This document shows, one piece after another, positions 1 through 54,509 of a stretch of 64,000 nucleotides of DNA. Source of the DNA: an uncultured Nitrospinaceae bacterium (GTDB lineage: Bacteria > UBA8248). Position 1 is the first letter of the stretch. Every line of letters starts with the position of its first letter. The notes beneath the pieces are model-generated. The model worked only from the letters and a program-made list of their open reading frames with translations, was not told the DNA's origin and made no database searches. The position numbers and the translations under genes are program-made. The DNA is taken from the NCBI GenBank assembly GCA_964005815.1, contig CAXFSR010000043.1, positions 99,307 through 163,306 of the forward strand, written 5' to 3'.

Positions 1-796
1 GCCCTTCGTGCAATAAAGCAATCCCACCAGGAGGAACACAAACTTGGAAACATTCAAGCAATTGCTCCATAGAAGTTCCTAAACGAAGCGCTTTCTTCGA
101 ATGAAAATACAACTCTTCTCTAAAACCTCTGAAAGCAAACACTGCCATAACTATCAGTTCTCTTTGTATTGGAGTTAAAAACCCTTCTTTTTCTTCGAAG
201 AAACTCCAATGCATCCTAGAATAAATCTCAAAATAGTCTGGATCGAGTTCTACGCCAAATGCAATTGCTTCATCCACATACCCGTTTGCCTCCTCTATCG
301 TTTCAGTAACTCTTTTAATCTTTTCTTCTTTTGTCTCATTTTCTGGAACATTTCTAGCTACTTCTTCTGCATCAAATCTCCAAGGGCGTTTTTCACGAAC
401 CAAACTCGGGTCTTCATCTACTATCCTCTTCAAAGTCTCCAGTCCTACCATCCTAGAAGGCCCGCCCCCCGGGAAAAGAGCAACTTCAAAAACTTCCAAT
501 AGTTGATTAAGTGTAGCCCCCTCTTTCAATGCATTTTTTGCATGTACATAAACTCCTGGTCTATCCCGAAAAGAAAGTACTCCACATACAATCATTTCTC
601 TTGTCATATGATCTAAATGTCTTTTATTTTGAGGTGTGAAAAATCCCCATCCATTATATCTGTACGCTTCAAAATAATCTGGATCTAAAGAAGCACCGAA
701 GGAAAGCAAGTTATCGAAACCGGTTGTTCCATCTCTTTCTTTTCTGAAAATCTCTGCCACTCTCAATGCCTTTTCTTCATAACTTTCACTATTCAT
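1..796 (-). CDS. Carboxymuconolactone decarboxylase (CMD/AhpD-fold) family protein with two CMD domains; runs off the window start
   Basis: Not in ORF track. Manual translation from ATG at 796 (SD GAAAGGAAG upstream): MNSESYEEKALRVAE...HLDHMTREMIVCGVLSFRDRPGVYVHAKNALKEGAT...FPGGGPSR...FGVELDPDYFEIY...HSKKALRLG..EQLLECFQVCVPPGG. Colinear paralogue of the 834-1670 gene. Confidence 0.85.
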   Translation of the reverse strand, partial: MNSESYEEKALRVAEIFRKERDGTTGFDNLLSFGASLDPDYFEAYRYNGWGFFTPQNKRHLDHMTREMIVCGVLSFRDRPGVYVHAKNALKEGATLNQLLEVFEVALFPGGGPSRMVGLETLKRIVDEDPSLVREKRPWRFDAEEVARNVPENETKEEKIKRVTETIEEANGYVDEAIAFGVELDPDYFEIYSRMHWSFFEEKEGFLTPIQRELIVMAVFAFRGFREELYFHSKKALRLGTSMEQLLECFQVCVPPGGIALLHEG

Positions 797-833
797 TCCA
801 TCTTCCTTTCTTAAGATTCTAAAATCATTAAAC

Positions 834-1670
834 TTAGTCTTCGTTTTTCATTTCCTCGGAAATAATCCTCAATGTTCTCAAACCTTCATGCAATTGACCT
901 AGACCAGCAGGGGGAATACACACTTCATGACATTCCAAAAGTTGATGAATAGTAGCACCAAGTCTCAAAGCTTTCTTGGCATGCTGGTATGCTTCTTCCC
1001 TGAGACCTCTGAAAGTCATCACTACAAGAAGAACCATCTCCCTCACAATTGGATCCAAATGACATCTTTCTTGTTCAAAAAATCCCCAGTAGACCTTCGA
1101 ATAAACCTCAAAAAAATCTGGATCCAATTCAACACCAAACGATATATTTTCGTCTTCATATCCCATGTCTGAATGAATCTTCTTTGTAATTCTTTCAACT
1201 TTTTCTTCTCTTGATTCATTTGAAAAGTCTTCTTCTATTTCTGAATCACTTTTAGCCTCTCTTTCTATAGGAGCATGACCATCTTCCTCTTCAACTATCT
1301 TCCTTAAGCCTTCTAATCCTACCACCCTGGTTGGTCCACCACCCGGGAAAACTGCGACTGAAAAAACTTCCATAAGTTCATTAATTGTAGCGCCCTGCCT
1401 CAAGGCATTTTTTGCATGCTGATATGCCCCAGGTCTATCTCTAAATGCTAGGAGTGCACATACAATCATTTCTCTGGTCTTATGATCCAAATGTCTAGGC
1501 TTATCTGCAGAAAAAAACCCCCATCCTGAGGATCTATACAACTCTTCATATTCATAGTCCCATTCAATAGCAAAATTTACGAGACTTTTGTCTGGGGTTG
1601 CCTCATCCCAAACAGGGAGAATCTTTTCTTTAGCCCTTTGGACTTTTTCTTCTAATGTTTCTTTGTTCAT
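834..1670 (-). CDS. CMD/AhpD-fold family protein with two internal CMD domains
   Basis: Repeated LD-x-x-x-REM(I/V)...AYQHAK(N/K)ALR-x-GATI-x-(E/Q)L motifs typical of CMD. Start moved from 1697 to ATG 1670, which has a GGAG SD. Confidence 0.85.
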   Translation of the reverse strand: MNKETLEEKVQRAKEKILPVWDEATPDKSLVNFAIEWDYEYEELYRSSGWGFFSADKPRHLDHKTREMIVCALLAFRDRPGAYQHAKNALRQGATINELMEVFSVAVFPGGGPTRVVGLEGLRKIVEEEDGHAPIEREAKSDSEIEEDFSNESREEKVERITKKIHSDMGYEDENISFGVELDPDFFEVYSKVYWGFFEQERCHLDPIVREMVLLVVMTFRGLREEAYQHAKKALRLGATIHQLLECHEVCIPPAGLGQLHEGLRTLRIISEEMKNED

Positions 1671-6792: not shown

Positions 6793-8535
6793 ATGGAAAA
6801 CTACAAAAGTGAGATTCAAGACGGAATGCAAATAGATTGGGATGTTCCAATCGAAATGGACGATGGAGTTGTCTTACGATGCGATGTATATCGTCCCGTT
6901 GGAGAAGGAAAATATCCTGTTGTAATGAGTTATGGCCCCTATGCTAAATGGCTTCACTTAAAAGATGGCTATCCAAATCAATGGAAAGTTTTAACCGAAA
7001 AGTTCCCTGAATCTTTAGCTGGTTCTTCCTGCAAATATATGAATTGGGAACTAGTGGACCCAGAAAGATGGGTTCCCGATGGATACGCAATAGTTCGAGT
7101 TGATTCTAGAGGAGCTGGACGATCACCAGGCTATATGGAGGTTTGGTCACCAAGAGAAACTAAAGATTTTCATGATTGTATAGAGTGGGCAGGAACGCAG
7201 GACTGGAGCAACGGAAAAGTTGGATTAAATGGAATAAGTTATTTTGGAATGAATCAATGGTTTGTGGCTTCTACACAACCATCACACCTAGCCGCTATAT
7301 GCGTTTGGGAAGGTGCGGCGGATCTTTATCGTGATTTAAGTCACCACGGCGGCATACTCTGTCTCTTCGCAAATACTTGGTATACAGACACGGTTATGCT
7401 GAGACAGCATGGAAAAGGAAATCGAGACTGGAGAAGCAGGATTAACGGTGAATGGGTTTCTGGTCCTGATACTCTTCCAGAAGAGACATTAGCTGGTAAT
7501 CGAACAAATTTTGGTCAAGATTTATTAGATCACCCTTTGATCGACGATTATTGGAAAGAACGTATGCCAGATTATTCTAAAATCAATGTTCCTCTTTTAT
7601 CCGCAGGAAATTGGGGTGGAGTTGGACTCCATCCTAGAGGCAACTTTGAAGGATATCTTGAGTCTGCATCTGATCAAAAATGGCTTGAAGTTCATGGGTT
7701 AGATCATTTCACTCACTTCTATACCGATTACGGAGTAAACTTACAGAAAAAATTCTTTGGACATTTCCTTAAAGAAGAAAAAACAGGATGGAATGAGCAA
7801 CCAAAGGTTTCTCTTCACATTAGACATCCTGGCGAAAAATTTATTATTAGATCAGAAAACGAATGGCCCTTAGAAAGAACAGAATGGACTAAATATTACT
7901 TAAAAAGTTCAAATACCACACTTTCAGTAGGACAAGCAGAAGAGGAATCTGAGCTAGAATATGAAGCTTTAGGAGATGGCCTGACGTTCATGACAGATGT
8001 ACTTCAAGAGGATACTGAAATTACAGGACCCGTAGCAAGCAAATTATTTATATCTTCAGAGACAGAGGATGCAGATCTTTTTCTTATCCTAAGAATCTTT
8101 ACAGCGGATATGAAAGAAATTACTTTTCAAGGTTCAAATGATCCTAACACTCCAGTTGGTATGGGTTGGTTAAGAGCATCTCACAGAAAATTAGATACTG
8201 AGAAAAGCGAGATCTATCGTCCTTACCACACTCACGATGAAAAACAGTTACTCACTCCAGGAGACATCTACGAACTGGATATAGAAATATGGCCAACTTC
8301 TATTGTAGTTCCAAAAGGACACAGAGTAGGCTTAAGTGTAAGAGGAAGAGACTATGTACACCCTGGTTTTGAGCAACCAGAAATGCCTGTCTCTGGAAGA
8401 ATTTACTCTGGAGTAGGACCATTCAAACATGACAATAAAGTGGATAGACCGGCCGAGATATTCGGGAAAAAAGTAAAGATTCATACTGGTCCGAATCACC
8501 CTTCGTACATTTTACTACCGATCATTCCAAACTAA
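6793..8535 (+). CDS. CocE/NonD family hydrolase (peptidase S15-like)
   Basis: GISYFG nucleophile elbow, DSRGAGRSPG, W(A)GTQDWSNGKVG, C-terminal jelly-roll with GWLRASHR. Confidence 0.92.
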   Translation: MENYKSEIQDGMQIDWDVPIEMDDGVVLRCDVYRPVGEGKYPVVMSYGPYAKWLHLKDGYPNQWKVLTEKFPESLAGSSCKYMNWELVDPERWVPDGYAIVRVDSRGAGRSPGYMEVWSPRETKDFHDCIEWAGTQDWSNGKVGLNGISYFGMNQWFVASTQPSHLAAICVWEGAADLYRDLSHHGGILCLFANTWYTDTVMLRQHGKGNRDWRSRINGEWVSGPDTLPEETLAGNRTNFGQDLLDHPLIDDYWKERMPDYSKINVPLLSAGNWGGVGLHPRGNFEGYLESASDQKWLEVHGLDHFTHFYTDYGVNLQKKFFGHFLKEEKTGWNEQPKVSLHIRHPGEKFIIRSENEWPLERTEWTKYYLKSSNTTLSVGQAEEESELEYEALGDGLTFMTDVLQEDTEITGPVASKLFISSETEDADLFLILRIFTADMKEITFQGSNDPNTPVGMGWLRASHRKLDTEKSEIYRPYHTHDEKQLLTPGDIYELDIEIWPTSIVVPKGHRVGLSVRGRDYVHPGFEQPEMPVSGRIYSGVGPFKHDNKVDRPAEIFGKKVKIHTGPNHPSYILLPIIPN

Positions 8536-47895: not shown

Positions 47896-50763
47896 ATGCC
47901 AGCAATAGATATGAACTCTAGAGAATTTAAGCCACCCGAAGAAAAAACAAGTCCTATTCCCTTCTTTATATTGGGCATAATTTTTGTATTAATTACTGCC
48001 TGGACAGTCTGGGATGAAGCATTTACTCGAAGACCTTGGAAAAACTATCAAACTTCTTTCAACCAATACGAGAAAAATAAAGTTCAAAAGAAATTATCTG
48101 AAAAAGAATCTAAATTAAAAGATCCTCTTGCTAAAATAAACTCAAAAATCACTTCGCTTGAAAACAAAATACAAATTAATGAAACATTAAAGAAGCTAAA
48201 AGAGACACTAAAGGAGAAAGAGTTAGTAGCTTTCGAAAAAGTGCAAGATTATGGTTTCGCAAAAGCCGTTTATGACGAAACCTATTTTACATACGAAGAT
48301 GCTCTTCGAAAAGGAAAAGATATATCAGACTTGAAATTAAAGTTGGCTAATGAAGCAAAAAAAATGGGTAGACTTAAACCCATTGCAGAAAAAGCCGAAA
48401 AAGAAAGAGATGATATAAAATCCAAAATAGATTCAATTCTAAATCCACTTAAAAATTTAAAAAAGAAAAAAAGAGAGATAGCCAAAGAGATTTCTGTACT
48501 TCAGCGAAGAATAAGTTCCATAAATTCCAGAAAATATGAAATCAAACAATTAGTTTTAAGGGGTTTTGATAAAAATAATTTTAATGAACCTACTATGAGA
48601 GTAGACAGGTGTCAAAGTTGTCATTTGGCAATAGACCGTAAAGGTTTCGAAAATGCCAAGCAACCTTTCAAAACTCACCCAAACCGTAAATTCTATCTAA
48701 AATCAACACATAACATGAATGAAATTGGCTGCACCTCTTGTCACGGAGGTCAAGGGGCTGCAGTAACTTCGGTAGACAAGGCTCACGGTTTTGTACAGTT
48801 CTGGGAAGACCCTTTACTAAAAGGGAAAGAAACAGAAACTAAATGCAGAAATTGTCATACAGAAGTTTTCAATATTCCTAAGGCACCACACATCTCTCAA
48901 GGAATTTCATTAATTAGAGAATTGGGATGTCATGGATGTCATCTAATACCAGGAACAAAAGATATCAGAATGGTAGGCCCTAACTTATCGAGAATACAAG
49001 AAAAAGTTCAACCTGAATGGTTAGTATCATGGATCAAACGTCCAAAAGATTACAATCCTAGAACCAAGATGCCATTTTATGGTCTCTCTCAAAAAGAATC
49101 TGAAGATATTGCAAGTTACATATGGCATAGTGGCAAAAGAAAAATCAAGAAAGAAGAAGTTGCAGACCTAGGATCTTCCGTTCAAATTGAACAAGGGAAA
49201 AAGCTTTTTGAGTCAGTTGGCTGCTTAAGCTGCCATGTCAGAAGCGAAAATGATGTTTTGTCAAAGAAACCAATAAAAGGTGTTGACGGCAGACCTTTAG
49301 TTCTTACAAATAGAGATTATGCTCCTGCACTTCAAAAAGTATCACAAAAAGTTCAAACTGACTGGTTATATAGATGGTTGAAAAATCCGAAATCCTATTG
49401 GCATGAAACAAAGATGCCTAGTCTAAGACTAACAAAATCTGAATCTAAATCCATAACTTCATACCTACTTAGCCTGACTCCAAAGAAAAGCAAAAGAAAC
49501 TATACCCTTCGAAACGATCCAGCGACCTTAAAACGAGGTAAAGATTTAGTTGCCAAAAATGGATGTTATGGTTGTCATGTAATTCCAGGAACTGAAAAAT
49601 TATCAAAAATTGGTCCTAACCTTTCAAGGTTTGCAGTGAAGAAACCAGTTGAGCTTTCTTATGGAAACGTTCTTGATATACCGCACACTTGGGAAGCATG
49701 GACTTTTTCTAAACTTAAAAATCCAAAGATTTTCCAAACTGAACGTGAACAACTTTTGATGCCTAATTTTGGACTTTCAGATAAAGAAGTAACCCAAATC
49801 AGAACTTATTTACGATCGATGACACCTCACGCGGCTCCACATAATGTTCATCATCATTTAAATAAGAGACAGAAAAAAATAGAATCAGGAAGAAGGATGT
49901 TAGAAAAATATAATTGCCAAGGTTGCCACGTTATCGAAAATTGGGGAGGCAGTATAGTCAAAAGATACAATGACAAGAATAATGCTCCCCCTTACTTAAA
50001 TGGGGAAGGCAATAAAGTCCAACCTGATTGGTTATACGGTTTCTTGAATAATGTTGTCACGCTTCGTCCTTGGCTAAAAATAAGAATGCCAAGTTTTAAA
50101 ATGCCAAAAGAAGACTCTACTAAACTTGTTGAGTATTTTGCTGCAGTTGACAACAAAATGAGACCTTATATCCACTTCGAGTCTAAGTCTACCAAGGAAC
50201 AGTTAAACGAAGGCAAGAACTTATTTAATAAAGCTGAATGTGTTTCATGTCATGGGGAATGGCCACCTCCATCAGGCAAAGAACCACCATCAGCACCGAA
50301 TCTAAACTTAGCCAAGAAAAGACTCCGTCCTGAATGGATAGTATCTTGGTTAAAAGATCCACAAGCAATTATGCCTGGCACAAAAATGCCTACTTTCTGG
50401 CCCGGCGCTGGTATAAGTTCAAATATTATTAAAGGAAAATTTGAAGAAAAAGAAGACGGAAATTGGATTTACATTTTGGAATCAGATAAAGAATCCGACG
50501 TTCCTGAGGAGTTTGCCACTCTCTATATAAAAAATAAAACTATTAAAGTTAAAGTGCTGGAAGTAGATGAGAAAACATTGCGTATTTCTAGCCCCATCAA
50601 AATAGATAGCAAGTTCACAAATATTAAAATAACAAGTCATGGAGAACCTATAGATCCTGAAATATTAGGTGGTGATGCTCTTGAACAGATGAGAGTATTA
50701 AGAGATTATCTAATGATAGAAACTAACCTCACTAAAAGCACAAATGATATGAGGAAAGGATGA
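47896..50763 (+). CDS. Membrane-anchored octaheme cytochrome c subunit of a Rieske/cyt b complex
   Basis: Eight CxxCH motifs (CQSCH, CTSCH, CRNCH, CHGCH, CLSCH, CYGCH, CQGCH, CVSCH); N-terminal TM, coiled coil, and repeated class-I modules ending in MP. Confidence 0.93.
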   Translation: MPAIDMNSREFKPPEEKTSPIPFFILGIIFVLITAWTVWDEAFTRRPWKNYQTSFNQYEKNKVQKKLSEKESKLKDPLAKINSKITSLENKIQINETLKKLKETLKEKELVAFEKVQDYGFAKAVYDETYFTYEDALRKGKDISDLKLKLANEAKKMGRLKPIAEKAEKERDDIKSKIDSILNPLKNLKKKKREIAKEISVLQRRISSINSRKYEIKQLVLRGFDKNNFNEPTMRVDRCQSCHLAIDRKGFENAKQPFKTHPNRKFYLKSTHNMNEIGCTSCHGGQGAAVTSVDKAHGFVQFWEDPLLKGKETETKCRNCHTEVFNIPKAPHISQGISLIRELGCHGCHLIPGTKDIRMVGPNLSRIQEKVQPEWLVSWIKRPKDYNPRTKMPFYGLSQKESEDIASYIWHSGKRKIKKEEVADLGSSVQIEQGKKLFESVGCLSCHVRSENDVLSKKPIKGVDGRPLVLTNRDYAPALQKVSQKVQTDWLYRWLKNPKSYWHETKMPSLRLTKSESKSITSYLLSLTPKKSKRNYTLRNDPATLKRGKDLVAKNGCYGCHVIPGTEKLSKIGPNLSRFAVKKPVELSYGNVLDIPHTWEAWTFSKLKNPKIFQTEREQLLMPNFGLSDKEVTQIRTYLRSMTPHAAPHNVHHHLNKRQKKIESGRRMLEKYNCQGCHVIENWGGSIVKRYNDKNNAPPYLNGEGNKVQPDWLYGFLNNVVTLRPWLKIRMPSFKMPKEDSTKLVEYFAAVDNKMRPYIHFESKSTKEQLNEGKNLFNKAECVSCHGEWPPPSGKEPPSAPNLNLAKKRLRPEWIVSWLKDPQAIMPGTKMPTFWPGAGISSNIIKGKFEEKEDGNWIYILESDKESDVPEEFATLYIKNKTIKVKVLEVDEKTLRISSPIKIDSKFTNIKITSHGEPIDPEILGGDALEQMRVLRDYLMIETNLTKSTNDMRKG

Positions 50764-51314
50764 CCGAAGCTAGAGACAGAAAACAAGTCAAACTGCCAGC
50801 TGAATACGAAGCTGAACAACAACATAAATCTTCTAACATAGACAGAAGAAGATTTATGAATTATACGGGTTGGCTTGGCATCCTTGGAAGTTTAGGAATC
50901 GCTTTATTAGGTTTCTTGCGTTTTTTGTTTCCAAGAGTTCTGTTTGAACCAAGAACGGAATTTAAAGCTGGCAATCCAAACGATTATGCAGTTGGTGCTG
51001 TAGACACAAGATATTTGAATAGTGAGCGCGTATATATTATCAGAGAAGAAGATGGATTTTACGCTTTAAGCGGTGTATGTACCCACCTAGGATGCACCCC
51101 TGCATGGTTAGCTTCTGAAAATAAGTTTAAATGCCCTTGCCATGGTAGCGGATTTAAAAGAAGCGGTGTTAATTTTGAAGGTCCTGCACCAAGACCTTTA
51201 GAAAGACATAAAATAGTCCTTGCGGAAGATGGGCAATTATTAATAGATAAAGGAAAATTATTCAGACAAGAGAAAGATGAATGGAATAAACCTGAAGCTT
51301 TTCTCTATTTATAG
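50760..51314 (+). CDS. Rieske iron-sulfur subunit
   Basis: Tat-like DRRRFM plus TM, CTHLGC, CPCHGS, GPAPRPL. Confidence 0.96.
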   Translation: MTEARDRKQVKLPAEYEAEQQHKSSNIDRRRFMNYTGWLGILGSLGIALLGFLRFLFPRVLFEPRTEFKAGNPNDYAVGAVDTRYLNSERVYIIREEDGFYALSGVCTHLGCTPAWLASENKFKCPCHGSGFKRSGVNFEGPAPRPLERHKIVLAEDGQLLIDKGKLFRQEKDEWNKPEAFLYL

Positions 51315-51369: not shown

Positions 51370-52158
51370 ATGAGAGGTTTAAAGGAAAGATTTAATTTAG
51401 ACAAACTTAAAAGTAATTTAATAGGTTCTCAGGTTTGGAGATCCATGTTTCGACATGGCTACGAAGATACACCGAGAAACAGAGTATTAATGGTTGTAGA
51501 CAATCTCTGGCTCCACCTCCATCCAACAAAAATTCGAAGACACGCAATTAGAATCCGGTTTACATGGTGTATGGGAGGAATTACTTTTCTTCTATTTCTT
51601 TATCTTGTAGTAACAGGTGTTGTTTTAATGTTTTACTATAGACCAGTGGGCGAATATGCTTATGCGGACATCAAATTCCTTGAGTTTGATGCACCTTTTG
51701 GAATGTTTATGCGTAATATGCACAGATGGGCTGCCCACGCAATGGTTATTGCTGTTTGGCTCCATATGTTACGTGTTTTTATGACTGGTTCATATAAACA
51801 ACCTAGAGAATTCAACTGGGTTATCGGGGTTTTACTTTTGACAGTTACGTTACTTCTTAGTTTTACTGGATATTTATTACCATGGGATCAATTAGCTATG
51901 TGGGCTGTAACAGTTGGGACCAATATGGCCAGAGCCACTCCACTTCTCGGTAGTGAGGGACCATTTGCAGAGTTCGTTGGTGTTACTCCTAGGCTTGATG
52001 CGCGTTCTGCACTACTTGGGGGGACTATCGTTGGACCACCCACTTTACTCAGATTCTATGTTTTGCATTGTATAGTCATACCGCTTATAGCATCAATTTT
52101 AATGATGGTGCATTTTTGGAGAATCAGAAAAGATGGTGGAATTTCTGGTCCTTTATAA
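51370..52158 (+). CDS. Cytochrome b, N-terminal half (cyt b6-like)
   Basis: [52 protein letters not shown]. Confidence 0.95.
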
Positions 52159-52186: not shown

Positions 52187-52972
52187 TTGGCTAAAGAAGA
52201 TAAGGTTATTGGTTCTGCTGAAGACATGCCACAAACTAGCTGGGAAAGGGTTAATGACAAGGTTCATGTTTGGCCCTATTTAACCCGCCTTGAGTTTATG
52301 TGCGCTATTATTATCACCCTAGTTTTGGTCGTCTGGTCAATCTTAATTGATGCACCTTTAGAGGAACCTGCCAACCCATCAGTAACACCTAATCCCTCAA
52401 AAGCTCCTTGGTACTTCCTTGGCCTACAGGAAATGTTAGTTTATTTCGATCCTTGGATGGCAGGTGTTGTGTTACCTACTCTAATTATTATAGGTCTAAT
52501 GGCTATCCCCTATATTGATGTAAATCCGAAGGGTAACGGTTATTATTCCTACAAAGAAAGAAGATTTGCCATACTTACCTTCCTTTTTGGTTTTCTAGTA
52601 CTTTGGGTTTGGTTAGTCATACAGGGAACTTTTATGAGAGGACCAGGATGGAACTTCTTTATGCCATGGGAATATTGGGATTCACACAAAGTTGTGGCTT
52701 TAACTAATGTAGATTTTCCTTATTGGCTTGGGTTTAGAGACTACTGGGTACAAGCTGCTGTTGGAGGATTATCTATCGTAGCACTTTATGCAACAATTCC
52801 AATTTGGTACTTTTTTAGAAGAAACACTGAAAAAATGAAAAACAAAGGGTTGGTAAGATATAATATAGAAGCATTCCTGTTTGTTACTATGATGGGGCTC
52901 GTAATTAAAATGTTGCTTAGAATCTTCTTAAATATTAAATACATAATGGTTACACCTTGGATTAACTTTTAA
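52187..52972 (+). CDS. Cytochrome b C-terminal half / subunit IV (PetD-like)
   Basis: VWPYL, APLEEPANP..TPNPSKAPWYFLGLQE, RGPGWNFF; TTG start. Confidence 0.9.
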   Translation: MAKEDKVIGSAEDMPQTSWERVNDKVHVWPYLTRLEFMCAIIITLVLVVWSILIDAPLEEPANPSVTPNPSKAPWYFLGLQEMLVYFDPWMAGVVLPTLIIIGLMAIPYIDVNPKGNGYYSYKERRFAILTFLFGFLVLWVWLVIQGTFMRGPGWNFFMPWEYWDSHKVVALTNVDFPYWLGFRDYWVQAAVGGLSIVALYATIPIWYFFRRNTEKMKNKGLVRYNIEAFLFVTMMGLVIKMLLRIFLNIKYIMVTPWINF

Positions 52973-53095: not shown

Positions 53096-53608
53096 TTAAT
53101 TTTCTGGCCAAGTCTGCAACCCTCTTGAAATTAAAATTTCTTTCAACTTATTCACATTGATTAATTCCATAGGCGCACCTTCTGAGTATTTCTGAACTTC
53201 TTCAGAGAAGTATCCAGTAGTTATTAAAATACCTTTTAATGCAGCTTCTGCTCTAACTGTATCAGACAACCCTATTACTCTTATTGAAGAAACATATTCT
53301 CCTTCTGGAACTAAAATGCCATGTACAATATAGTTCCCACCAACTATTTCCATAGGGTTGTTAGCTAAAATATCAATTTCACGACTATTAACCCAATTTG
53401 TTTCTAAAATTTGCATACCTAGATCATCTAATATTTCTCGGATCATTTTTTCAAAAGACTCTGGTGAAATTGACCTAAGAATTTCTATATCTTTATCATC
53501 TCTCATTTCATCTGCAGCTTCTTCCATAGCTACATTAGTAGTTGTTTTTTTAACAAAGAAAATTAATACAAATCCTACAAATAAAGCAAAAACAACAAGT
53601 TCTAGCAT
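53096..53608 (-). CDS. Membrane-anchored Mrr-like (PD-(D/E)xK fold) domain protein
   Basis: N-terminal TM, SPESFEKMI..L...G, IDILA, KGILITTGYFS..., MELIN...L. Confidence 0.72.
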   Translation of the reverse strand: MLELVVFALFVGFVLIFFVKKTTTNVAMEEAADEMRDDKDIEILRSISPESFEKMIREILDDLGMQILETNWVNSREIDILANNPMEIVGGNYIVHGILVPEGEYVSSIRVIGLSDTVRAEAALKGILITTGYFSEEVQKYSEGAPMELINVNKLKEILISRGLQTWPEN

Positions 53609-53677
53609 AAAACGTACCCCTGAATTGCAAAAATTAAAATAAAAAGGGTCAAAGAAAAGTACAGGACAGAAGGGAAA

Positions 53678-53845
53678 CTAACGAATCATACGATCATAGA
53701 CTTCGTTTTTTTTCCCCTGCTCTATTAGTTCATCGTGCTTAAAAGCTTGCGAGAGAGCTAACCAGCAGTAATAGATAACCAAAGGAAGCATAATAGCAAT
53801 TGGGATATTGTCAGGTTTTGTGAGTATAGCAAGAAAGTTTTCCAT
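53678..53845 (-). CDS. 55-aa KPDNIPI membrane peptide, putatively associated with the cyt b complex
   Basis: Not in track. MENFLAILTKPDNIPIAIMLPLVIYYCWLALSQAFKHDELIEQGKKNEVYDRMIR; SD-like AGGGTGG upstream. Confidence 0.75.
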   Translation of the reverse strand: MENFLAILTKPDNIPIAIMLPLVIYYCWLALSQAFKHDELIEQGKKNEVYDRMIR

Positions 53846-54029
53846 TAATAATCCACCCTAAAAATAATATAAAATGCAACTACATTTTGAATGATTTTAA
53901 ACTTTCGATCAACACTGCTAATGAATTGAAAATTTGTTAACAAAAATTCAAAAAATAGTTGATGTATAACACCTGCCTTTGTTAACATAATGAAAGTAAT
54001 GCCCGTAAACGTTTCTAGAGGATTTTCTA

Positions 54030-54509
54030 TTGCCACATTTTATTTTTGATTCTTGCATTGGTTGCGACGTTTGTTTGCCTGTTTGCCCTACAAAAGCAAT
54101 TACAGGAGAGTCGAGGGAAATATACAAAATAGACCCTACCTTATGTATTGATTGTGGAGTATGTGGAAAATATTGTCCTGCAGCCGCTATACAAGATGAC
54201 GCAGGAAATATAATAGAAAATATCAAACATAAAGATATGCCTAAGGCATTTGTCATGGAAGAGAATTGTACCGGTTGTGTATGGTGCGTGGATATTTGTC
54301 CTTTCGATTGCATTATCATGTCTGATTCATCAGTTGAAAGAGATCATAGTCAGGTTGCCGTAGTCGATGAAAGCAAATGTGTAGGTTGCAGGCTATGCGA
54401 AGAAATATGCAATAAAGGAGCAATTATAGTTCCGAAACATTCTGATGAAGCTGAATACATGACTCCATTCATGCATGAATTTGTCACTTCACCTTTAAGA
54501 GCTTATTGA
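54030..54509 (+). CDS. Polyferredoxin with four 4Fe-4S motifs
   Basis: CIGCDVCLPVCP, CIDCGVCGKYCP, CTGCVWCVDICP, CVGCRLCEEIC; TTG start with GAGG SD. Confidence 0.9.
   Translation: MPHFIFDSCIGCDVCLPVCPTKAITGESREIYKIDPTLCIDCGVCGKYCPAAAIQDDAGNIIENIKHKDMPKAFVMEENCTGCVWCVDICPFDCIIMSDSSVERDHSQVAVVDESKCVGCRLCEEICNKGAIIVPKHSDEAEYMTPFMHEFVTSPLRAY

Follow-up and report, generated by a model that had tools for sequence, protein, structure and literature searches.

The open reading frame at positions 53678..53845 (minus strand) of the DNA analysed here encodes a 55-aa peptide that, judging from sequence comparison and structural modelling, is probably the split-off N-terminal helix of subunit IV and most likely serves as a small subunit of the bc-type complex. 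The DNA, hereafter the window, is a 64,000-nt stretch from an uncultured Nitrospinaceae bacterium. A first-pass annotation of the window had suggested that subunit IV was split once again and that the detached helix is supplied in trans, and this reading is supported by homology, by distribution across genomes, by gene order, and by co-folding of the peptide with cytochrome b (cyt b) and subunit IV.

A 55-residue peptide gene under purifying selection

Translation of the 168-nt reading frame, which begins with ATG, gives MENFLAILTKPDNIPIAIMLPLVIYYCWLALSQAFKHDELIEQGKKNEVYDRMIR, matching the 55-aa minus-strand product quoted in the first-pass annotation. A Shine-Dalgarno-like GGGTGGA, read from the sequence, lies 6 nt 5' of the ATG (53852..53858, minus strand). 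The peptide consists of a short outer N-tail (residues 1-14), one transmembrane (TM) helix (residues ~15-33), and a basic inner C-tail (residues 34-55). In an alignment of 30 free peptides (A1), D12 and D38 are invariant, F4, I7, P11, N13, P15, I16, I41, G44, and M53 are nearly so, and apolar or small residues account for 96% of positions 15-33. The mean number of Lys and Arg residues across the 30 members is 0.93 in the N-tail versus 5.97 in the C-tail, which fits a single span with the N-terminus outside. This N-out/C-in topology agrees with that of the fused form described below, as judged by the charge count and the direction of predicted contacts.

Comparison with the same-genus genome G003 revealed 12 synonymous and 0 non-synonymous differences in the reading frame (pS 0.36, pN 0); the corresponding values were pS 0.55 and pN 0.081 against G001, and pS ~0.8-1.0 and pN 0.14-0.19 against other genera of the family. 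These results confirm that the frame is a real gene under strong purifying selection, and its occurrence once per genome in 58 of 401 genomes, together with the synonymous bias of its differences, places it beyond chance. A spurious reading frame was rejected on the strength of this selection and of its single-copy recurrence as a separate gene. In a first sample of 61 genomes, strong matches to the peptide (E < 1e-14) were present in 44. At E up to 0.1, the window's peptide matched 0 Pfam families. No counterpart turned up among the models of Pfam, NCBIfam, and PADLOC or among solved chains, and a search of the ESM Atlas returned only unnamed clusters of 55-58 aa of the same kind.

Two RNA libraries from one sample (X1 and X2) each contained a 264-nt contig over positions 53617-53877, i.e., the peptide gene, a weak hint of expression considering that contigs of RNA libraries may stem from DNA. 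The spacer and the neighbouring Mrr-like gene had no contig cover in X1 or X2; as contig data, whose depths cannot rank genes, these have no bearing on co-transcription. A TTAGCA-16-TAAAAT site lies just 5' of the 5' end of the RNA contig, within a promoter and terminator scan that showed no excess of sites (6 promoter-like sites vs. 5.2 expected, 0 terminators) and gave no usable signal.

The bc operon and its surroundings

The genes of the bc operon lie on the plus strand. The first encodes a 955-aa multihaem cytochrome c (47896..50763) with matches to several cytochrome c Pfam families, and is followed by genes for a 184-aa Rieske iron-sulfur subunit (50760..51314; PF00355), a 262-aa cytochrome b6-like subunit carrying the CxGG motif TWCMGG (51370..52158; PF00033), and a 261-aa, short-form subunit IV (52187..52972; PF00032). 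Subunit IV is the putative partner of the peptide and cyt b the second predicted contact partner. The subunit IV gene starts 28 nt past the cyt b stop, and its product opens with 24 polar residues ahead of KVHVWPYL and has no hydrophobic helix there, as the first-pass annotation had stated in noting that the protein begins just before this motif. The subunit IV and peptide genes are convergent, with a stop-to-stop distance of 706 nt. Between them, 69 nt 3' of the peptide gene and also on the minus strand, is a gene for a 170-aa Mrr_cat-like protein with an N-terminal TM helix (53096..53608; PF04471 and PF22722). On the other side, across a 184-nt spacer, a plus-strand gene for a 159-aa ferredoxin with four 4Fe-4S motifs (54030..54509) diverges from the peptide gene, as does a plus-strand relA/spoT gene.

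The ferredoxin-relA pair is found beside the peptide in 29 of 30 Nitrospinaceae-type loci (L021-L053 minus L049-L051), with L046 ending at a contig edge. In genus g8 (loci L023-L038), an orthologue of the 955-aa cytochrome c (~60% identical) lies ~4 kb off, beyond ferredoxin and relA, rather than at the operon head as in the window's genus, which indicates that the operon was rearranged within the family. A bc operon of Rieske, split cyt b, and octahaem cytochrome c has been described in Nitrospina gracilis, and the small peptide goes unmentioned in the excerpted account of that operon (PMC3578206). Reviews of cytochrome bc evolution, as excerpted, place Nitrospinae in cyt b subfamily G (PMC5600118).

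Homology to the N-terminus of long-form subunit IV

A phmmer search with the peptide against 1.84 billion representative proteins returned 174 matches at E up to 0.001. Among the 150 matches listed, at least 23 bear the peptide segment ahead of subunit IV motifs (WP-x-L and/or PWYF), with E values for these fused proteins of 1e-5 to 1e-7, and a few more of the matches listed resemble truncated fused forms. One further candidate, P0113, is a repeat protein and was taken as spurious. When the window's subunit IV served as the starting point, ~50 of its best 120 homologues were fused proteins of 292-293 aa, 60-66% identical to it over 91-99% of its length. The order of elements in the fused proteins is ME-x-x-x-x-I-x-x-(P/A/S)DN(I/V)P(I/V), a TM helix, an ND segment, and then K-[IV]-x-x-WP. 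These proteins open directly with the peptide segment, so that the peptide matches them from the first Met. Proteins of this kind, with KPDN(V/I)PI, a TM helix, and an ND segment ahead of K-V-x-VWP, had been mentioned in the first-pass annotation, which had proposed a profile search for N-terminal fusions to subunit IV. Such fusions do exist: comparison by hhalign of the A1 profile (free peptides) with the A5 profile (fused proteins) gave a probability of 99.6% and an E value of 1.3e-23 over residues 1-56, and columns D12, N13, P15, I7, and D38 are conserved in both sets alike.

Longer fused forms (P0079, P0130, and others) have two further helices preceding the KPDN helix, and the source names attached to fused forms were KSB1 and Ignavibacteriota, not the Planctomycetes or Acidobacteria to which the first-pass annotation had assigned the type. 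In a search for related loci with a narrow alignment (A2), free peptides made up all of the best 80 among 393 confirmed places. The extra N-terminal helix was present in none of the solved chains, as determined by sequence comparison. An AlphaFold2 monomer of the fused orthologue P0219 (alignment A5) had a mean pLDDT of 64.9 and a pTM of 0.50, too poor for placing the helix. Subunit IV proper (PF00032) comprises helices E-G and the quinol-site P(E/A)WY loop, while the peptide has one helix and no Pfam match. By these sequence features, the peptide is a fragment of long-form subunit IV rather than a subunit IV.

Distribution of free and fused forms

To survey the segment more widely, 401 genomes (the window's own, its relatives, and ~350 from elsewhere in the domain) were searched with two queries, a fused protein and the peptide profile. 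The segment was present in 71 genomes, at one copy each, as a free peptide in 58 and as part of a fused protein in 13. The free peptides belong to 47 genomes of the Nitrospinota clade (families f1, f2, and f4) and to 11 genomes in eight other families; the fused form is spread over eleven families, and in its 13 genomes no additional free copy is present. The orthologous short subunit IV was found in 57 of the 58 free-peptide genomes, in two of them (G006 and G036) just as a remnant at a contig end. The one free-peptide genome in which it was not found, G012, is 90% complete and in 540 contigs. In the genomes searched, G012 aside, stand-alone peptides thus co-occur with a truncated subunit IV, as the first-pass annotation had anticipated, and were not seen independently of bc genes. 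Outside of the 401 genomes, all four peptide-bearing Binatia-type genomes tested also carry the short subunit IV elsewhere in the genome.

Three metagenome-assembled genomes (MAGs) of 85-93% completeness (G026, G067, and G151) have the short subunit IV, and the peptide was not detected in them. In G026, a Nitrospinaceae MAG that is 93% complete, the peptide is absent upstream of the Mrr-like gene (contig C24 1-1400, L111) and from the rest of the assembly, and an unrelated 230-aa reading frame occupies its usual site, reflecting either real loss or an assembly join. No peptide was found in any of the 10 genomes that have distant subunit IV types alone (37-55% identical to the fused query), nor in the rest of the 401. 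In sum, free and fused forms exclude each other and the peptide tracks its subunit IV orthogroup, as these counts support. A Mantel test of peptide against subunit IV core distances in 21 split genomes gave r 0.75, matched by 0 of 2000 permutations; the correlation fits joint inheritance and would be expected of any two vertically inherited genes.

Gene order and proposed relocation

The position of the free peptide gene relative to the bc operon varies by lineage. In 29 of 34 Nitrospinota-type loci, the peptide and subunit IV genes are 0.7-4 kb apart, and four of the remaining five loci end at contig edges. They are 380 kb apart in G014, a complete chromosome. In the class-level relatives (family f4), the two genes either lie on different contigs or are separated by 167-713 kb, and subunit IV has a soluble, low-complexity N-terminal extension without a helix. 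The peptide is likewise far from the bc operon in Binatia-type genomes, and none of the window's neighbour genes was found within the DNA examined (up to 8 kb per side) at 46 Binatia-type loci. At one of these, in G061 (L055 7983-8993), a EutA-like gene precedes the peptide gene and a gene for a 274-aa TPR protein follows it, the peptide stop and the TPR start abutting at 8168/8169.

In four genomes, the peptide gene is within the bc operon or at its tail. G164 and G197 have, on one strand, Rieske, cyt b, peptide, subunit IV, and cytochrome c, the peptide gene being flanked by those of cyt b and subunit IV (L114 1498-1665 in G164; L118 1453-1728 in G197). The peptide stop abuts the subunit IV start in G197, and subunit IV has a long Ala/Pro/Lys-rich, soluble N-terminal extension in both genomes. 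G048 and G065 have, again on one strand, Rieske, cyt b, subunit IV, cytochrome c, peptide, and the Mrr-like gene.

A different arrangement was observed in G102 (contig C55, L139, frame 310-1401, minus strand), where cyt b and subunit IV form one 533-aa frame. The end of cyt b (...RKDGGIS) runs into subunit IV at ...KVHVWPNL, with the KPDNIPI peptide encoded on its own ~4 kb off. An internal extra helix would flip the topology of this protein, and the helix must therefore stay free.

Predicted placement of the peptide

The first-pass annotation had also proposed co-folding the peptide with its putative partners. Predictions were run with alignments of 21 rows for cyt b, 51 rows for subunit IV, and 30 rows for the peptide, which was the scored partner. 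The complex scored 0.77, the best of three controls 0.27, and the prediction thus passes its controls. Of 157 solved complexes, 116 attain the mark used, as do 2 of 215 mismatched pairs, a calibration that holds roughly, considering that custom alignments were used here. Three runs had at least 96% of contacts in common, with a partner pLDDT of at least 79. Since the helix is absent, by sequence, from solved structures, the result is not a memory of a solved complex, although the model may exploit within-chain covariation learnt from fused orthologues.

The predicted contacts involve residues 54-57, 75, 119-124, 129-149, and 158-164 of subunit IV and residues 57-66, 120-139, 175, and 260-261 of cyt b. 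Peptide residues 15-31 run along cyt b 120-138 and subunit IV 129-149 in the model; these segments would correspond to helix B, which carries His118 and His132, and helix G, respectively. The N-terminal motif of the peptide touches subunit IV 54-57 (DAPL), W75 of the APWY loop, and 158-164, while peptide residues 33-38 and 49-54 touch cyt b 57-66 by the CxGG cysteine (C67), the C-terminus of cyt b, and subunit IV 119-124. From this modelled arrangement, the peptide may buttress the quinol-site loop and the inner haem niche.

Direction of change

These results suggest the following sequence of events. In other phyla, the KPDN(I/V)PI-TM-ND segment represents the first ~50 residues of the orthologous subunit IV. 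Gene fission would have detached the helix, leaving its gene initially where it was, between those of cyt b and subunit IV; relocation would have come later, in Nitrospinota to a site beside the gene for a membrane-anchored Mrr-like protein and convergent with the bc operon. The free peptide is envisaged to insert N-out/C-in and to pack in a groove flanked by cyt b helix B and subunit IV helix G, with its KPDNIPI motif against the outer-side loop bearing the quinol-site APWY and its ND segment against the inner-side region by the CxGG haem-binding cysteine of cyt b. Supplied in trans, the helix would thereby restore the architecture of the fused enzyme. That separate transcription of the peptide allows separate regulation of assembly, as the first-pass annotation had added, is speculation, and other lineages have the peptide gene within the bc operon itself.

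A quick maximum-likelihood tree was built from 83 subunit IV cores, after reduction of the database rows from 168 to 84 by k-mer redundancy and removal of the unclassified G295. Rooted on six helix-less sequences, it contains a helix-bearing clade with 99% support. Fused forms make up the basal branches of this clade, namely P0154, the three-helix clade, and two further groups, and Fitch parsimony places the fused state at its base. At least five changes between the fused and unfused states are needed in either direction, and the direction and number of fission events are not firm given the weak backbone of the tree, with 29 of 80 inner forks open. Conceivably, then, an ancestral free small subunit was fused to subunit IV several times and the window retains the original arrangement. 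One fused clade is indeed nested among split forms, the helix-less outgroups mark the helix as an addition that may first have been free or fused, and the weak backbone and the count of changes serve this course as well as the reverse. It is nonetheless unlikely, considering the fused state of the base and of the basal groups and that the in-place splits, in which the peptide gene of G164 and G197 immediately precedes that of subunit IV, have the appearance of intermediates in a fission. Fission is thus the better-supported direction on the sequences compared. The function proposed for the peptide is the same whichever way the change ran.

The Mrr-like neighbour

In most lineages, the constant neighbour of the peptide gene is the Mrr-like gene and not a bc gene. 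All 34 Nitrospinota-type loci have it 3' of the peptide gene in the same orientation. Of 10 split genomes from outside the Nitrospinota clade (not counting G048), eight have it beside the peptide gene, seven in the same orientation and one, G102, convergent. In G048, the peptide stop (6922) abuts the Mrr-like start (6923). Even at a distance from the bc operon, as in f4 and G014, the two genes remain paired. The Mrr-like gene is on another contig in G197. Searches for it found nothing in G164 or in three of four Binatia-type genomes, the fourth having one weak match (E 9.8e-5). Among the 13 fused-form genomes, it was not found in 11, and two had weak matches, one of which (G121) is a 158-aa reading frame with a TM helix and an Mrr-like part 5 kb from the fused subunit IV. 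Members of the family are 158-174 aa long with one N-terminal TM helix, further examples being L112 6923-7438 and L157 1258-1734.

Mrr-type restriction endonucleases carry an (E/Q)xK motif among their PD-(D/E)xK catalytic residues. The window's 170-aa protein matches PF04471 at E 6.9e-11 and the "inactive REase" family PF22722 at 27.3 bits vs. a cut-off of 27, and in an alignment of 21 members (A6), the expected (E/Q)xK site reads IVHGI, IALCI, LVQCT, etc., with no conserved lysine. By its sequence, the protein may be catalytically dead, and it may be an unrecognised partner or assembly factor of the bc complex.

Such conserved adjacency, including the abutting genes of G048, the persistence of the pair away from the bc operon, and the scarcity of the Mrr-like gene in fused-form genomes, would also be expected if the peptide, although descended from a subunit IV helix, now worked with the Mrr-like protein as, e.g., an assembly factor or regulator and were no stoichiometric bc subunit. 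This is quite improbable, considering that Binatia-type genomes and G164 keep the peptide without an Mrr-like neighbour and G197 has the two on different contigs, that no peptide occurs without its cognate subunit IV orthogroup (one incomplete MAG excepted), that free peptides conserve the same residues as fused proteins, and that the predicted complex with cyt b and subunit IV outscores its controls. A defence or toxin-antitoxin-like module that sits beside the bc operon by chance, as might be read from the neighbour's matches to Mrr_cat restriction-endonuclease models and from domain-level PADLOC matches to Mrr-type defence proteins (best E 1.5e-08), is highly implausible and was rejected, for the pair is single-copy, syntenic, and core to a whole class, with occurrences in several other phyla, unlike patchy, mobile defence genes, the Mrr-like family does not conserve E/Q-x-K, and the peptide has no PADLOC match and is homologous to a respiratory subunit.

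The preferred reading, in which the peptide is a split-off helix of subunit IV and a bc subunit, could be extended to a functional fission, whereby the free helix and a putatively co-transcribed, dead Mrr-like protein control assembly or activity of the bc complex. This extension is possible, if doubtful. Were it true, the helix/Mrr-like module could gate forward vs. reverse electron flow in nitrite oxidisers, and the Mrr-like protein would be a further unrecognised component or assembly factor of the bc complex family.

Significance

The principal nitrite oxidisers of the sea are Nitrospinota, whose bc-type complex is believed to carry reverse electron transport (PMC3578206). In the main texts of the open full-text literature, no description of the KPDN motif or of a free peptide was found, and searches for the motif strings returned unrelated papers alone. 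A separately encoded subunit IV helix is a new form of a known, bc-type complex. If the proposal is correct, current models and purifications of bc complexes from Nitrospinota, Binatia-type bacteria, and other lineages miss a subunit, one that would have been overlooked because its gene is unnamed or labelled "hypothetical protein" and is often far from the operon. It would also provide a clean natural example of one TM helix cut from a polytopic respiratory protein and supplied in trans, with fused, split-in-place, and relocated stages available for comparison, and with G102 as a case in which cyt b and subunit IV are rejoined and the helix remains separate. The motif positions predicted by the model, against the quinol-site loop outside and the CxGG haem cysteine inside, offer a concrete target for structural or mutational work.

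Comparison with known systems

Relatives of subunit IV include QcrC of the Bacillus type and the b6f protein PetD. Homology of the window's subunit IV to PetD is evident from PF00032 and a weak match to TIGR01156. Alignments of solved PetD chains with a fused orthologue begin at the WP motif and at PetD residue 31; neither these nor other solved chains have the extra N-terminal helix. The N-terminus of b6f PetD contains a KKPD stretch, which was considered as a remnant of the KPDN motif and dropped, as alignments with solved PetD begin at residue 31. Cytochrome b6f also has one-helix small subunits, PetG, PetL, PetM, and PetN, and the action proposed for the peptide is similar, that of a single-span peptide at the membrane face of a cyt b/subunit IV core. 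The peptide shares no sequence similarity with them, however, and differs in origin, being a fragment of subunit IV. Comparison of 30 family members with Pfam gave scattered weak matches, none of them to PetG, PetL, PetM, or PetN, and a single member matched FixQ (E 0.096), so that the family does not belong to the FixQ/CcoQ type.

The closest likeness is to long-form subunit IV, both the 292-297 aa proteins (P0219, P0196, and P0154) and the three-helix proteins of 360-470 aa (P0079 and P0130), which contain the same KPDN-TM-ND segment with the same conserved columns and are otherwise 47-66% identical to the window's subunit IV. In the long form, the helix is joined to helix E via a linker of ~20-25 residues, whereas the window encodes it on the opposite strand as a free-standing 55-aa product, with a start, a stop, and a ribosome-binding site to itself. 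Extra helices in subunit IV are already on record, in that AlphaFold3 models of subunit IV-like proteins of Kuenenia stuttgartiensis have five TM helices and not three; the excerpted account of these Rieske/cyt b complexes mentions no separately encoded helix (PMC12954380).

Finally, the arrangement in the window recalls the classic fission of cyt b into b6 and subunit IV, a split cyt b having been described in Nitrospina gracilis in the excerpts of that account (PMC3578206). As in that event, an ancestral chain would have been divided into membrane pieces that reassemble, here for a second time. The piece that separated here differs from those of the classic fission in that it is a single, 55-residue helix outside the canonical eight-helix cytochrome b.
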